Of a stretch of DNA of 6,799 nt, positions 2,052 to 6,780 are shown in pieces; the first letter of the stretch is position 1, and each line of letters begins with the position of its first letter. The stretch is from a virus (lineage: Duplodnaviria > Heunggongvirae > Uroviricota > Caudoviricetes). Below the pieces are notes generated by a model that did not search any database, was not told where the DNA came from, and saw only the letters and a list, made by a program, of their open reading frames with translations. A program made the translations under genes and the position numbers. The stretch is taken from the IMG/VR virus record IMGVR_UViG_2547132252_000010, positions 1 through 6,799 of that record. One strand, 5' to 3'.

Positions 2052-2330
2052 ATGTTACCCGTGTTATGGCTTGAAAGCGCAGATACCGACCTAGATGATA
2101 TAACTAGTTATATTGCTCGTTTCGACATAGATGCGGCTGAACGCTTATGGCAGCGATTAAGGGGTTGTGTGCTGCCGTTATCCGAACATCCGTATTTATA
2201 CCCACCAAGCGACAGAGTACCTGGCTTGCGTGAGATTGTAGCCCACCCTAACTATATAATTCTATACCGCGTAACAACATCAAGCGTTGAAGTAGTAAAC
2301 GTGATCCACGCAAGACGCCAGTTTCCCTAA
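2052..2330 (+). CDS. parE2: ParE/RelE-superfamily toxin (ParE2-like), 92 aa
   Basis: MLPVLWLESADTDLDDITSYIARFDIDAAERLWQRLRGCVLPLSEHPYLYPPSDRVPGLREIVAHPNYIILYRVTTSSVEVVNVIHARRQFP has the ParE-family pattern (D-x-x-I-x-x-YIA, RE-[IL]-V, YIILYRV). The start at 2052 is tightly coupled to the antitoxin stop; the in-frame ATG at 1956 would overlap paaA2 by 95 nt and is rejected. Confidence 0.85.
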   Translation: MLPVLWLESADTDLDDITSYIARFDIDAAERLWQRLRGCVLPLSEHPYLYPPSDRVPGLREIVAHPNYIILYRVTTSSVEVVNVIHARRQFP

Positions 2331-2350
2331 CTTTCACTACCAATAGAAAC

Positions 2351-2393
2351 ATAACAACCGCAACGACTTTATCAAAAGCGTTGTGTTTGTTAT
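2351..2393 (+). terminator. Candidate intrinsic terminator after the TA operon: 15-bp A/U-rich stem (one mismatch, one G-U) with a 13-nt loop and U-rich 3' arm
   Basis: ataacaaccgcaacg (2351-2365) pairs with cgttgtgtttgttat (2379-2393), starting 21 nt after the parE2 stop. The stem is atypically long and AT-rich, so the call is weak. Confidence 0.3.
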
Positions 2394-2400
2394 GTCCCGC

Positions 2401-2441
2401 GGTTTAGTTTTTACTTGGCTTAAGTTTAATGTTTATTAAAC
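2401..2441. repeat. Paralogous second copy of the operator-like block found upstream of the regulator
   Basis: GGTTTAGTTTTTACTTGGCTTAAGTTTAATGTTTATTAAAC (2401-2441) aligns with GGTTTAGTGTTTTTTGCGAGTTTAGTGTTTAATAAAC (1381-1417), sharing the GGTTTAGT head and the TTTA(A/G)TGTTTA(A/T)TAAAC core. Confidence 0.45.
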
Positions 2442-2680
2442 TAAAAATACCAACCACCCCGCCCCACAGAACGCAGGGAAATACTTCGAGTTACCCGGCA
2501 GTGGTCAGGGGTTAAGTAGCCAGCCCGAGGCGTATGAACATGACGGCAGGGTTCAACTTTAATAACTATGCAGCAGTTTTTTGTTCCGCTACCCCGGCGT
2601 TAAGGGGAAACAGAGGGTTTCTCAGTGGGCGAAGTCAAACATCAGAATGGAAGGCATCCCGGGATCGGCAAAGAAGCAGC

Positions 2681-2711
2681 AATGGCGCTTTATATTGACA
2701 TCAGCGCCATT
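2681..2711 (-). terminator. Possible terminator hairpin downstream of the minus-strand zinc-ribbon gene
   Basis: Perfect 9-bp inverted repeat AATGGCGCT (2681-2689) and AGCGCCATT (2703-2711) with a 13-nt loop, about 50 nt past the stop at 2760-2762. On the minus strand it is followed by GCUGCUUCUUUG, only moderately U-rich, and the loop is large. Confidence 0.2.
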
Positions 2712-2759
2712 GCAGGACAGGTAAGAGTTATCAGAGCGGTAACTAAGCGGTATGCGCCT

Positions 2760-2960
2760 TTACTTCAGAAAGTCTCTGGTGAGTGCACCGAAGATATTGT
2801 CAACGATTTCGTCATCGAACTGCGAGGACTCATCTTCAGTTACAAGGTGACCACAATTTTTGCAGATGGCTCCCGCGAAACTGTCAGAGCCCTGCGGCTT
2901 AAAGGATGTGTCAAAGACTTCGCCACCACATTCTGGGCAAGAAAACTTGATTGTATTCAT
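2760..2960 (-). CDS. Small C4 zinc-ribbon protein with acidic C-terminal tail, 66 aa
   Basis: The minus-strand ATG at 2960 is preceded by AGGA with an 8-nt spacer (gagAGGAaattggttATG). The product MNTIKFSCPECGGEVFDTSFKPQGSDSFAGAICKNCGHLVTEDESSQFDDEIVDNIFGALTRDFLK has C-P-E-C and C-K-N-C pairs about 21 residues apart, then an acidic tail. The overlapping plus-strand ORF 2625..2981 has no ribosome-binding site and is taken as antisense noise. Confidence 0.6.
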   Translation of the reverse strand: MNTIKFSCPECGGEVFDTSFKPQGSDSFAGAICKNCGHLVTEDESSQFDDEIVDNIFGALTRDFLK

Positions 2961-3052
2961 AACCAATTTCCTCTCGAGTAACAGACCCCTCAGAGGATAC
3001 CACCTCGCCTGACGTGGTTAAAAGCAGGCAACGCTAACCACAAGGAGCCGAC

Positions 3053-3271
3053 ATGCAGAAACGAGAACCCGTCATCATCGCGCCAGACTATACCGATGAT
3101 GAACTTTATGAGTGGATGCACCAGAAAATTAATGCAGCGCAGGATCTGAAATGGGCCAATGAAGCCAGGGCTAAGCAGGCTGAAAATCTGTCCGCTCTGG
3201 AGCAGGATATCACCAATCTGGAAAAAGCAGCGGCATTAAGCATTGCCAGAATGATTACATACCCGCGTTAA
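3053..3271 (+). CDS. Hypothetical small protein, 72 aa, predicted helical/coiled-coil
   Basis: ATG at 3053 is preceded by AAGGAG (3042-3047) with a 5-nt spacer. The product is MQKREPVIIAPDYTDDELYEWMHQKINAAQDLKWANEARAKQAENLSALEQDITNLEKAAALSIARMITYPR. It is divergent from the zinc-ribbon gene across a 92-bp intergenic region; no family recognised. Confidence 0.55.
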   Translation: MQKREPVIIAPDYTDDELYEWMHQKINAAQDLKWANEARAKQAENLSALEQDITNLEKAAALSIARMITYPR

Positions 3272-3627
3272 TAGCTAACCAACGAAGCTAAGGTTGGTAA
3301 TTAAGGAGTTCTCCACGGGTGAGGTGGAGTGCGTGCGCCGGACACGGGTGAGCATACGGCACTGACAGTTTACTGAAAGGATATTTCCCTGAAAAGTCAG
3401 ACCATAACGCGAAAGCGCACGGCGAGGTAGCTGGTTCATAGATAGCCTGTCGTTAAATTTTCGTCGACCGTGCGCTTCCGGTTGTGGCAATCCGCGAAAT
3501 GGCGCGGCGGTAAGTATGGAGGGGTTATTCCTTCCCCCGTTGAGGACACCGGGTTGTCAGGTTGACCATACGCTTAAGTGACAACCCCGCTGCAACGCCC
3601 TCTGTTATCAATTTTCTGGTGACGTTT

Positions 3628-3670
3628 GGCGGTATCAGTTTTACTCCGTGACTGCTCTGCCGCCCTTTTT
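3628..3670 (+). terminator. Candidate intrinsic terminator: GC-rich 7-bp basal stem (GGCGGUA/UGCCGCC) plus apical 4-bp stem, followed by CUUUUUAAA
   Basis: GGCGGTA (3628-3634) pairs with TGCCGCC (3658-3664), and CAGT (3636-3639) with ACTG (3651-3654); a T5 run follows at 3666-3670. It lies about 400 nt after the stop of the 72-aa gene and just before the 19-bp inverted repeat. Confidence 0.35.
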
Positions 3671-3674
3671 AAAG

Positions 3675-3822
3675 TGAATTTTGTGATGCGGTGAATGCGG
3701 CTGAGCGCACGCGGAACAGTTAAAACCAAAAACAGTGTTATGGGGGGATTCTCTGTATCCGGCGTTAATTGTTAACTGGTTAACGTCACCTGGAGGCACC
3801 AGGCACCGCATCACAAAATTCA
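3675..3822. repeat. 148-bp segment bounded by perfect 19-bp inverted repeats (TGAATTTTGTGATGCGGTG at 3675-3693; reverse complement at 3804-3822)
   Basis: Direct reading: the arms are exact reverse complements and the match stops at both boundaries. The 110-bp interior holds three GTTAA(C) repeats (3766-3784, including GTTAACTGGTTAAC at 3771-3784) and a tandem GGCACCAGGCACC (3795-3807). The right arm ends 17 nt before the ATG at 3840 and 5 nt before its GAGGA ribosome-binding site. Confidence 0.7.
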
Positions 3823-3839
3823 TTGTTGAGGACGCGATA

Positions 3840-4028
3840 ATGGAAACGTTATTACCAAACGTTAATACGTCTGAAGGTTGTTTTGAAATTGGTGTCACTA
3901 TCAGTAACCCTGTATTTACTGAAGATGCCATTAACAAGAGAAAACACGAACGGGAGCTATTAAATAAAATATGCATTCTTTCAATGCTGGCCCGTTTACG
4001 TCCGATACAAAAAGGATGCTGGCAATGA
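3840..4028 (+). CDS. Hypothetical small protein, 62 aa
   Basis: ATG at 3840 is preceded by GAGGA (3828-3832) with a 7-nt spacer. The product is METLLPNVNTSEGCFEIGVTISNPVFTEDAINKRKHERELLNKICILSMLARLRPIQKGCWQ. Its TGA stop (4026-4028) overlaps the next ATG (4025-4027) as ATGA, implying translational coupling. The longer track ORF from 3735 has no ribosome-binding site and would run through the inverted-repeat arm. Confidence 0.45.
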   Translation: METLLPNVNTSEGCFEIGVTISNPVFTEDAINKRKHERELLNKICILSMLARLRPIQKGCWQ

Positions 4029-4308: not shown

Positions 4309-6780
4309 ATGAGTAAAGTCTTTATTTGCGCCGCCATTCCGGACGAACAGGCAATAAAGGAAGAAGGTGCCGTCGCTGTAGCCACTGCCATTGAAGCCGG
4401 TGATGAACGTCGCGCCCGCGCAAAATTTCACTGGCAATTCCTGGAACATTATCCGGCTGCTCAGGACTGCGCTTATAAATTTCTTGTTTGCGAGGATAAA
4501 CCCGGTATACCCCGCCCTGCCCTCGATTCCTGGGATGCTGAATATATGCAGGAAAACCGCTGGGATGAGGCGTCTGCTTCCTTTGTCCCGGTCGAGACTG
4601 AATCCGATCCGATGAACGTCACTTTTGACAACCTGGCCCCTGAAGTACAGAACGCTGTCATGGTTAAGTTCGACACATGTGAAAACATCACTGTTGATAT
4701 GGTGATTAGCGCACAGGAATTGTTGCAGGAAGACATGGCAACATTCGACGGCCATATCGTTGAAGCGTTGATGAAAATGCCAGAAGTTAACGCCATGTAT
4801 CCGGAGCTTAAGCTGCATGCCATCGGGTGGGTTAAGCATAAATGTAAGCCTGGTGCCAAATGGCCCGAAATTCAGGCAGAGATGCGCATCTGGAAAAAAC
4901 GTCGCGAAGGTGAACGCAAGGAAGCCGGAAAATACACGTCTGTTGTTGATCTCGCCCGCGCCAGAGCCAATCAACAGCACACTGAAAATTCAACAGGAAA
5001 AATCAACCCGGTCATTGCTGCCATTCATCGCGAATACAAGCAGACATGGAAAACACTGGATGACGAACTGGCCTACGCTCTCTGGCCTGGTGATGTGGAT
5101 GCCGGAAACATTGACGGCAGCATCCATCGCTGGGCAAAAAATGAAGTTATCGACAACGGCCGCGAAGACTGGAAGCGTATCTCGGCATCAATGCGCAAAC
5201 AGCCTGATGCCCTTCGCTACGACCGCCAGACTATTTTTGGCCTTGTCCGTGAACGTCCGATCGACATTCACAAAGACCCTGTGGCACTGAACAAATACAT
5301 TACTGAATACCTGACTACAAAGGGCGTGTTTGAAGATGAAGGAACAAATCAGAGCGCAACTGACACTCTCTCGTCGCCAGTACCAGAAACTGATGCAGTG
5401 GAAACGGCAATTCCGGACAACGAAAAAACCGAATGCAAAGTGGAAGTCGAACCATCTGTAGAGCGTGAGGGGCCGTTCTACTTCCTCTTCACCGACAAGG
5501 ATGGCGAAAAATACGGTCGCGCAAACAAACTTTCTGGTCTGGATAAGGCGCTGGCTGCCGGGGCTACTGAAATCACAAAAGAAGAATATTTTGCCCGAAA
5601 AAATGGCACATACACAGGCTTACCGCAAAATGCAAATACCGCACAAAATTCTGAACAACCAGAACCGGTAAAAGTTACCGCTGACGAAGTAAAGAAAATT
5701 ATGCAGGCAGCCAATATCAGCCAGCCTGACGCCAATCAGTTGCTCGCCGCATCACGTGGTGAATTTGTTGCAGGGATTAGCGACCCGAATGATCCGAAAT
5801 GGGTGAAGGGGATTGAAACCCGCGATTCTGTGAACCAGAACCAGCAAGAAACGGAACAGAACGACCAGAAAGCGGAACAAAACAGCCCAAATACGCAACA
5901 AAACGAGCCAGAAACGAAACAACCTGAGCCAGTAGCGCAACAGGAACCGGAAAAAGTCTGCACCGCCTGCGGTCAGACCGGCGGCGGCAACTGCCCTGAT
6001 TGTGGCGCGGTGATGGGCGACGCAACATACCAGGAAACATTCGATGAAGAGTATCAGGTTGAAGTTCAGGAAGATGATCCGGAGGAAATGGAAGGCGCTG
6101 AACATCCACACAAGGAGAACACTGACGGCAATCAGCATCACGATAGCGATAATGAAACTGGCGAGACGGCAGATCACTCAATTAAGGTGAACGGTCATCA
6201 AGAAATCACATCCACCAGCAGGACGTGTGACCATCTAATGATCGACCTTGAAACCATGGGAAAAAATCCTGATGCCCCGATCATCTCAATAGGTGCAATA
6301 TTTTTCGATCCGCAAACCGGAGATATGGGACCGGAATTTAGTAAGACTATCGATCTGGAAACTGCTGGCGGGGTCATTGATCGGGACACCATTAAATGGT
6401 GGCTTAAGCAATCACGCGAAGCGCAATCTGCCATTATGACCGATGAAATCCCGTTAGATGATGCACTATTACAATTGCGGGAATTTATCGACGAAAACTC
6501 CGGTGAATTTTTTGTTCAGGTCTGGGGAAATGGAGCCAACTTCGACAACACGATTTTGCGCCGTTCATACGAACGGCAGGGGATCCCCTGCCCGTGGCGT
6601 TACTACAACGATCGCGATGTACGCACAATCGTTGAGCTGGGGAAAGCCATAGACTTCGATGCCAGAACGGCTATTCCATTCGAAGGTGAGCGCCATAATG
6701 CACTTGATGACGCCCGTTACCAGGCAAAATACGTTTCAGTTATCTGGCAAAAACTGATCCCGAATCAGGCTGATTTTTAA
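4309..6780 (+). CDS. Prophage recombination-type exonuclease, 823 aa: long N-terminal and linker region (RecE-like by recollection) with an internal C4 zinc ribbon, fused to a C-terminal DEDDh (DnaQ/ExoX-like) 3'-5' exonuclease domain
   Basis: ATG at 4309 is preceded by GAGGT with an 8-nt spacer. The C-terminal domain (from about M644, nt 6238) carries the three DEDDh motifs: Exo I MIDLETMG (D-x-E), Exo II WGNGANFD, Exo III HNALDDARYQAKY (H-x4-D). Upstream are a C-x2-C-x21-C-x2-C zinc ribbon (codons 551-565, nt 5959-6003) and an acidic Q/N/E/P-rich low-complexity linker. The middle region (LLAASRGEFVAGISDPNDPKWVKGI...CTACGQTGGGNCPDCGAVMGDATYQETFDEE) matches my memory of central RecE; this is unverified. 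Confidence 0.9.
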   Translation: MSKVFICAAIPDEQAIKEEGAVAVATAIEAGDERRARAKFHWQFLEHYPAAQDCAYKFLVCEDKPGIPRPALDSWDAEYMQENRWDEASASFVPVETESDPMNVTFDNLAPEVQNAVMVKFDTCENITVDMVISAQELLQEDMATFDGHIVEALMKMPEVNAMYPELKLHAIGWVKHKCKPGAKWPEIQAEMRIWKKRREGERKEAGKYTSVVDLARARANQQHTENSTGKINPVIAAIHREYKQTWKTLDDELAYALWPGDVDAGNIDGSIHRWAKNEVIDNGREDWKRISASMRKQPDALRYDRQTIFGLVRERPIDIHKDPVALNKYITEYLTTKGVFEDEGTNQSATDTLSSPVPETDAVETAIPDNEKTECKVEVEPSVEREGPFYFLFTDKDGEKYGRANKLSGLDKALAAGATEITKEEYFARKNGTYTGLPQNANTAQNSEQPEPVKVTADEVKKIMQAANISQPDANQLLAASRGEFVAGISDPNDPKWVKGIETRDSVNQNQQETEQNDQKAEQNSPNTQQNEPETKQPEPVAQQEPEKVCTACGQTGGGNCPDCGAVMGDATYQETFDEEYQVEVQEDDPEEMEGAEHPHKENTDGNQHHDSDNETGETADHSIKVNGHQEITSTSRTCDHLMIDLETMGKNPDAPIISIGAIFFDPQTGDMGPEFSKTIDLETAGGVIDRDTIKWWLKQSREAQSAIMTDEIPLDDALLQLREFIDENSGEFFVQVWGNGANFDNTILRRSYERQGIPCPWRYYNDRDVRTIVELGKAIDFDARTAIPFEGERHNALDDARYQAKYVSVIWQKLIPNQADF

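Follow-up and report, generated by a model that had tools for sequence, protein, structure and literature searches.

The dicF-dicB Region of a Qin-Like Prophage

The window, by which the whole 6,799-nt stretch of viral DNA analysed here is meant, carries a pair of 19-nt inverted repeats, of which the left arm (3675-3693, TGAATTTTGTGATGCGGTG) and the right arm (3804-3822, CACCGCATCACAAAATTCA) are 100% complementary over 19 nt and are separated by 110 nt, giving a unit of 148 bp. This unit lies in the spacer between dicF and dicB in the dicBF operon of a Qin-like prophage of Escherichia coli. Over 3560-3900, the sequence matches E. coli O157:H7 genomes at 100% and a K-12 genome at 98.8% identity, and this region is present in 4,642 of 5,426 complete E. 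coli genomes; the entire window shows a 98.9% match to O157:H7 prophage DNA. On the left side of the unit lies the small RNA DicF (Table 1), which is recognized by its Rfam model at 3614-3665 (76.7 bits, E 4e-16) and coincides with the dicF annotation of MG1655 (1649382-1649434), which maps to the 53-nt form. The hairpin that a preliminary description of this DNA had called terminator-like is hence the intrinsic terminator of DicF, and the gene with a ribosome-binding site that it had placed to the right of the unit is dicB, whose product matches Pfam DicB (E 1.7e-37). Downstream of dicB follow a DUF1482/ydfD-like gene and then a gene for an 823-aa exonuclease.

That the repeats do not arise by chance, as was also proposed in the preliminary description, is borne out by the sequence statistics: two matches to the 19-mer were found in none of 200 dinucleotide-preserving shuffles, and simple arithmetic gives a chance expectation for such an arm pair of about 6799 x 150 x 4^-19, i.e., roughly 4e-6. 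The search for other copies of the 19-mer, which had been suggested as a check, yielded no third copy within the 6,799-nt window, even with three mismatches allowed.

Two observations concern the database records of this region. The PGAP tables of the O157:H7 RefSeq records lack a dicF ncRNA feature despite the 76.7-bit score, whereas dicF is annotated in MG1655. Furthermore, the 254-kb record of Aeromonas phage AP1 (MT713136) contains 247 nt (249906-250152) that are 98% identical to the E. coli DicF-module region, which could be a recent transfer or an assembly contaminant.

Table 1. Features of the dicF-dicB region, with positions in the window and the basis of each assignment.
Feature	Position	Strand	Basis
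Second long imperfect helix upstream of DicF (3402-3425/3463-3488)	3402-3488	+	Predicted fold; position of the putative RNase III cut deduced from species size
DicF sRNA, 53-nt form (3613-3665) with intrinsic terminator hairpin and U-tract	3613-3670	+	Rfam RF00039
Closing helix P1, 5' strand (holds left repeat)	3673-3693	+	RNA fold
Hairpin P2: U-GCG-GC, loop UGAGC, GC, bulged A, CGC-G	3696-3713	+	MFE fold
Variable region P3 (length and sequence vary between variants)	3714-3760	+	Alignments and single-sequence folds
Hairpin P4 (GGCGUUAAUU / GGUUAACGUC), holds GTTAA(C) repeats	3761-3787	+	Fold
Hairpin P5, CCUGG AGGCA CCAGG, with invariant GGAGGCAC motif	3789-3803	+	Fold, invariant columns
Closing helix P1, 3' strand (holds right repeat)	3804-3824	+	RNA fold
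dicB: Shine-Dalgarno GAGGA (3828-3832), CDS 3840-4028 (start ATG at 3840)	3828-4028	+	Pfam and RefSeq annotation

The Spacer as a Folded RNA Module

Read as RNA, the two arms pair into a 21-bp helix (3673-3693/3804-3824), in which the 19 perfect pairs are extended by G3674-U3823 and A3673-U3824. Folding z-scores are -5.5 for 3600-3860 and -6.8 for 3671-3826, and the unit is predicted to fold as a five-helix module, consisting of the closing helix P1, the hairpins P2, P4, and P5, and a variable P3 (Table 1). P2 differs by three compensatory CG<->GC pairs from the true members of STnc100, a phage small RNA family discussed below, and its loop is variable among relatives, while P5 shows a UA<->GC change at its middle pair. 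P4 has double changes at two pairs in an alignment of close variants, and the same hairpin is formed from unrelated sequences in other genera; since MAFFT/RNAalifold on divergent copies recovered P1, P2, and P5 but misaligned P3 and P4, the support for P4 was taken from the close-variant alignment and from single-sequence folds.

The interior was described earlier as carrying GTTAA(C) repeats and a GGCACC tandem that might be bound by proteins. Both are present, the former at 3765, 3772, and 3779 and also at 3720, the latter at 3795-3800 and 3802-3807, but the fold explains them as arms of RNA hairpins: the GTTAA(C) repeats are the arms of P4, and the GGCACC tandem comprises the loop and 3' strand of P5 together with the start of the closing helix. 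P1 stops 3 nt short of the dicB Shine-Dalgarno sequence; no terminator-like site was found in 3824-3840, and the Shine-Dalgarno sequence and ATG of dicB come directly after the module.

Several further details of the fold were noted. The start codon of dicB lies within a weak AU-rich hairpin of 7 bp (3836-3853), which is predicted just 3' of the long helix. In the P5 region (3787-3807), all family members have an invariant Shine-Dalgarno-like GGAGG and a CACC motif on each side of P5, and it is conceivable that either CACC pairs with the invariant GGUG in an alternative fold. The loops of P4 (CUGG/CCGG) are similar in sequence to the P5 5' strand.

Selection Acts on Pairing Rather Than on Sequence

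The O157-type allele of the window has the perfect 19-bp DNA repeat, whereas K-12 carries C3689U and C3807U, which turn two G-C pairs into G·U wobbles and so break the DNA repeat while keeping the pairing of the plus-strand RNA. Among 31 distinct long-helix variants, 99.2% of the helix cells hold standard pairs, compared with 34-45% when the partners are slid by 1-3 columns, and the same alignment shows wobble-only variation at four pairs and double compensatory changes at two. In phage P7, two pairs of the inner helix (ATTGCGGTG/CACCGCAAT) have changed in a compensatory manner, and in the copies from Citrobacter, Lelliottia, Klebsiella, and Buttiauxella the closing helix measures 20-25 bp and is unrelated in sequence. 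In an alignment-free count over 94 unique family members, four closing-helix positions outside GGUG/CACC are paired in 98, 95, 85, and 72%, with 3-5 pair types each.

Among the closest dicB-type alleles, four distinct arm substitutions occur, of which two give G·U and two A·C, so that this shallow variation alone is indecisive, although the wobble alleles are far more frequent. A search for DicB homologues returned only 100%-identical proteins, and was used for allele counts, being uninformative on diversity. The G·U wobbles in K-12, the compensatory changes, and the helices of unrelated sequence in other genera show that selection operates at the RNA level, on the pairing of the arms and not on their sequence.

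A Diverged Relative of STnc100

At relaxed thresholds, the full model of the Rfam family STnc100 (RF02076) aligned over 3663-3872 with 39.7 bits (E 2e-7), which falls short of the curated gathering threshold of 47 bits. The same holds for the sister copies that were scored, namely the copy of Rac-type phages that directly precedes kilR (43.8 bits), the phage P7 copy that precedes terB in the tRNA/ban operon (43.0 bits), and the copy ahead of the kil gene in Shigella phage 75/02 Stx (32.9 bits); all four scored copies of this subtype are therefore below 47 bits, whereas true STnc100 members score 53-161 bits. At five further loci of the subtype, a scan at the gathering threshold gave no STnc100 match at the position of the module. 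As the Rfam thresholds miss the dicF-dicB subtype, annotation that applies them presumably misses it too. The only other Rfam match on the unit was tsr32 at 18.9 bits, which is noise.

A search with the motif GGTGAAT ... CACCNGGAGGCACNNGGCACC retrieved more than 119 viral contigs, which fall into two subfamilies. The first is true STnc100 (GGTGAATCCCCC...), often found in tandem arrays beside phage tRNA genes, and the second is the dicF-dicB subtype (GGTGAATGCGGC..., the GGUGAAUGCGGC subtype), of which no examined copy reached the threshold and which ranges over Escherichia, Shigella, Citrobacter, Klebsiella, Lelliottia, Buttiauxella, Pantoea, and Mixta. Both invariant motifs, GGUGAAU and CACCNGGAGGCACNNGGCACC, are present in the dicF-dicB module, as are the consensus helices of STnc100, and P1, P2, and P5 covary between the two subfamilies, P1 with 4-6 pair types at four positions, P2 through three CG<->GC swaps, and P5 by UA<->GC.

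STnc100, which includes EcOnc27 downstream of stx2B, and PasD are the next closest systems to the dicF-dicB module after the K-12 site itself, and are built alike: the closing helix begins with GGUG...CACC and is joined by an AAU junction to P2, which has a UGNGC loop and a bulged A, and a variable region is followed by the hairpin P4 and by P5 as CCNGG-AGGCA-CCNGG. The two differ, apart from the three compensatory pairs in P2, in what follows the module, which is a ribosome-binding site at dicF-dicB rather than the terminator of its own that makes STnc100 a stand-alone sRNA. They also differ in their setting, as the tandem arrays of true STnc100 are located in the late region, close to phage tRNA genes, unlike the dicF-dicB module. 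Finally, the closing helix is about 8 bp long across the family but measures 21 bp at dicF-dicB, and this long form is specific to copies that lie 32-53 nt upstream of a start codon, the downstream genes being dicB, kilR, terB of P7, a Rha/Ant-like ORF, and some small ORFs. Judged from motifs, helices, and covariation, the dicF-dicB core is related to the phage sRNA family STnc100 but has diverged from it.

The genomic surroundings of the relatives vary. At three loci, tandem arrays of true STnc100 lie directly downstream of phage tRNA genes (2265-3380, with four copies in a row, 3121-3798, and 6036-7174, each in the coordinates of its own contig), and the P7 copy of the module is likewise located inside a tRNA-containing operon. 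In the present window, no tRNA or tmRNA gene was found. At four further loci, one of them at 5482-5913 on the minus strand in its own coordinates, the module directly precedes isrK-like and C4-like antisense RNAs and a 282-aa Rha/Ant-like ORF. This context is that of an immI-like anti-repressor region, in which the module is again found beside RNAs that are processed from a transcript.

The layout of the dicBF operon recurs in the Rac prophage. In K-12 Rac (NC_000913.3, 1418200-1419400, minus strand), the validated DicF-like sRNA KilS (b4833) with its terminator is followed by the same module with a long closing helix and then by kilR, which encodes a small FtsZ-directed division inhibitor, so that the order of sRNA, module, and division inhibitor is common to Qin (DicF-dicB) and Rac (KilS-kilR). 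The helix of the kilR leader is imperfect, with 10 bp, a bulged A, and about 12 bp, and the downstream gene differs from dicB; no RNase III mapping of the kilR leader was found in the literature. In the Rac copy of K-12, P5 is mismatched at its base (CCAGA). Gordon et al. (2017) list, without a flag, a candidate RNase III site near kilR (1418510); as this falls outside the Rac module, about 110 nt upstream, it was not counted as support.

RNase III Processing of the Closing Helix

The long helix coincides with a processing site that is already known. In K-12, an RNase III site is located 3' of DicF in the dicBF transcript, at the same locus and in the same helix, and the 72-nt form of DicF is the product of RNase III processing of the full-length (read-through) dicBF mRNA, as stated in the available text of two later papers citing the original work (Faubladier, Cam and Bouche, 1990; PMC5069750, PMC9438474). 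From a 5' end at 3613, a length of 72 nt places the 3' end at about 3684 (3613 + 71), i.e., inside the left arm, with an uncertainty of a few nucleotides as the position is deduced from the reported size. By the rule of 2-nt 3' overhangs (PMC6212723), the partner cut would then fall at 3814|3815, giving putative RNase III cuts at about 3684|3685 and 3814|3815. An in vivo rule for RNase III holds that the two positions enclosed by the staggered cuts are base-paired, with a G-C pair among them (Altuvia et al., 2018; PMC6212723); for the cut position deduced from the 72-nt size, these would be G3683-C3814 and U3684-A3813, both paired and one of them G-C. The duplex is near-continuous over 21 bp, as compared with the at least 20 bp (about two helical turns) expected of an RNase III stem, and bears the selection for pairing over sequence that such a stem would show.

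Transcriptome data point to the same place. Table S1 of Gordon et al. (2017) lists a site at 1649470, intergenic between dicF and dicB and marked "Yes" under "Known?", with 0 and 0 reads in the wild type and 26 in the rnc deletion mutant, a weak signal whose position is the peak ratio within a 400-bp window rather than a mapped end. It corresponds to position 3701, 8 nt inward of the left arm. A third paper that cites Faubladier et al. (1990) mentions RNase III action, in its available text, only for the 5' side of DicF. RNase III dependence and the 72-nt product thus come from the available literature on the K-12 allele, which is 98.8% identical, and the present analysis shows the helix itself and what flanks it, that it is selected as RNA, and the family to which it is related.

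On these grounds, it is very likely that the inverted repeats are the two strands of an RNase III processing stem in dicBF read-through RNA, and hence belong to a structured RNA and not to a DNA element. Of the hypotheses put forward in the preliminary description, the one that saw in the repeats an RNA duplex cleaved by RNase III upstream of a ribosome-binding site is the one that agrees with the data, both through the wobble-tolerant and compensatory substitutions of the arms and through work that, as far as its available text goes, had already been published (the 72-nt DicF; Gordon et al., 2017). The RNase III site at dicF-dicB has been known since 1990 (Faubladier et al., 1990) and is ordinary apart from the folded RNA that it encloses; the available text of the literature on the K-12 site says nothing of a larger conserved RNA module that this helix closes.

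A comparable stem may exist on the other side of DicF. A 190-nt species of DicF is RNase III-dependent, and its 5' end, at about 3481 as judged from the reported size, would fall within the 3' arm of the second long helix (Table 1), which is probably the other published RNase III site, so that DicF seems to have an RNase III stem on either side. A second, degenerate copy of the module was considered upstream of DicF (3483-3597) and dismissed, as Rfam gave no STnc100 match there at E <= 10 and the long helix in that place is a separate one.

Leader and intercistronic hairpins in phage early transcripts are a familiar substrate of RNase III, with sites in the N leader of phage lambda and between the early genes of T7, where the cut separates segments of the transcript and alters expression of the gene just downstream. 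The dicF-dicB stem is analogous to these sites only, with no homology in sequence or structure, and differs from them in enclosing a conserved multi-helix core of 110 nt.

Alternative Readings of the Inverted Repeats

The preliminary description had also offered two readings at the DNA level, namely that a MITE-like element or the remnant of an IS, ending in the 19-bp inverted repeats, had inserted between dicF and dicB, or that the unit is an invertible phase-variation segment that controls dicB and the downstream genes by means of a recombinase encoded elsewhere. An inserted element would account for the perfect terminal repeats and sharp ends, for the homology to kilR-type phages that begins and ends near the ends of the unit (query 101-265), and for the occurrence of related modules in many phage contexts, yet the flanks (TTAAAG | ... 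| TTGTTG) share no direct repeat that could be a target-site duplication, and the 25+25-nt junction of an empty site was found in none of the 5,426 complete E. coli genomes. None of these genomes was found to lack exactly the 148-bp unit, a comparison that the preliminary description had called for among related prophages; the best twelve matches listed for the deletion construct are all filled sites, each in two pieces spanning 448 nt. Moreover, the arms vary by wobble and compensation and are wholly different yet paired in other genera, which is the reverse of what is expected of ends recognized by a transposase, and the interior is a conserved RNA fold. The copies whose neighbours were examined are all co-oriented with the gene just downstream (orientation of neighbours by longest ORF proved too noisy among small phage genes and was not used as evidence), and the listed homologous copies occupy the same kind of position in a phage operon. 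The insertion is accordingly a very improbable origin of the unit. The switch has even less to recommend it and its probability is negligible: its geometry fits, with inverted repeats around a non-palindromic segment just upstream of a gene, but of the 4,643 genomes matched by an artificially inverted query, none aligned with it over the full length at high identity, and the best full-length alignment (83.7%) is to a variant in forward orientation. Sixty genomes that seemed to cover the inverted query were discarded, since the alignment of strain 118UI is in forward orientation with a different P3 and the coverage is an artefact of BLAST extension. In addition, the repeats of K-12 are imperfect as DNA, the plus strand of the interior has no promoter-like site, and the window has no invertase gene, the IS1203 transposase being its only mobile-element gene; published work likewise describes no internal promoter in the dicBF operon. 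With no inverted form, empty site, or target duplication found, both readings were rejected.

The processing stem itself leaves part of the element unexplained, because a plain hairpin would not need a strongly conserved interior, and the conserved core therefore implies a further function. The main role of the module could be that of a leader cassette acting in cis on the downstream gene, or that of a precursor to a trans-acting sRNA, with the RNase III cut as the step of release or activation and with the conserved core (GGUGAAU ... CACCNGGAGGCACNNGGCACC) binding a protein, Hfq, or the ribosome. Such a role extends the RNase III explanation and is compatible with it, and is tentatively considered here as possible but rather unlikely. 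It is consistent with the invariant motifs and covarying helices of the core across Enterobacterales, with the position of long-helix copies 32-53 nt upstream of the starts of several different genes, and with the 9-bp closing helix, the usual length in the family, that the putative cuts would leave. True STnc100 copies overlap the Hfq-bound sRNA EcOnc27, and PasD, which has been described as STnc100-related, is an abundant Hfq-bound sRNA. However, no established function for STnc100 is found in the literature, and the K-12 data speak against a stable released core, as coverage at 3701 is zero in the wild type and reads occur only in the rnc mutant, under conditions in which the operon is repressed.

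A Model for Processing and Its Implications

In the processing scheme favoured here, i.e., RNase III cleavage of a stem in the read-through RNA, most transcripts from dicBp would stop at the DicF terminator, and in those that read through the module would fold as soon as the 3' arm is transcribed. RNase III would then cleave the extended P1 at about 3684|3685 and 3814|3815 and trim the closing helix back to 9 bp. Three products would result, namely DicF with a 19-nt 3' tail as the 72-nt species, its 5' side being trimmed by RNase E; the core, set free as an RNA of about 130 nt; and a dicB-ydfD mRNA with a leader of about 25 nt and a 5' monophosphate. As the helix ends 3 nt before the Shine-Dalgarno sequence, cleavage probably changes the access of ribosomes to dicB or the stability and decay of its mRNA, which could go in either direction.

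For the EHEC prophage, the existing picture is tidied: its inverted repeat is a known RNase III stem, at which the sRNA DicF is parted from the mRNA encoding the toxic division inhibitor DicB. Only the family relationship to STnc100, EcOnc27, and PasD and the cassette-like placement of the module are new. A wider proposal, which we put forward with reservation and hold to be somewhat doubtful, is that the dicF-dicB stem is one case of an unrecognised STnc100-like subfamily of phage RNAs across Enterobacterales, in which a conserved core of about 110 nt, with a putative ligand or partner, sits in a lineage-specific helix of at least 20 bp and RNase III excises the core and sets the 5' end of the downstream gene. 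If this is true, the module would be a portable cassette for the processing and expression of accessory or toxic phage genes, such as dicB, kilR, terB, ant-like genes, and other small accessory genes. Together with the family relationship, the shared arrangement of Qin and Rac offers a testable route to the control of DicB and KilR levels by read-through, RNase III, and leader structure, and to the role of the STnc100-type core.

Other Features of the Window

The product of the 823-aa exonuclease gene (4309-6780) has a Pfam match in its C-terminal part only, to the Rv2179c-like 3'-5' exoribonuclease domain (PF16473, E 2e-67), and its N-terminal 640 residues are without a Pfam match. An IS1203 element of the IS3 family occupies 35-1250 on the minus strand, contains an ALIL frameshift pseudoknot at 850-966 (121.5 bits), and is inserted beside or into a regulator gene at the start of the window. 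Upstream of ydfC, at about 1859-2330, lies a toxin-antitoxin pair of the RelB/RelE type, in the position that is taken by ydfA and ydfB in the Qin prophage of K-12.
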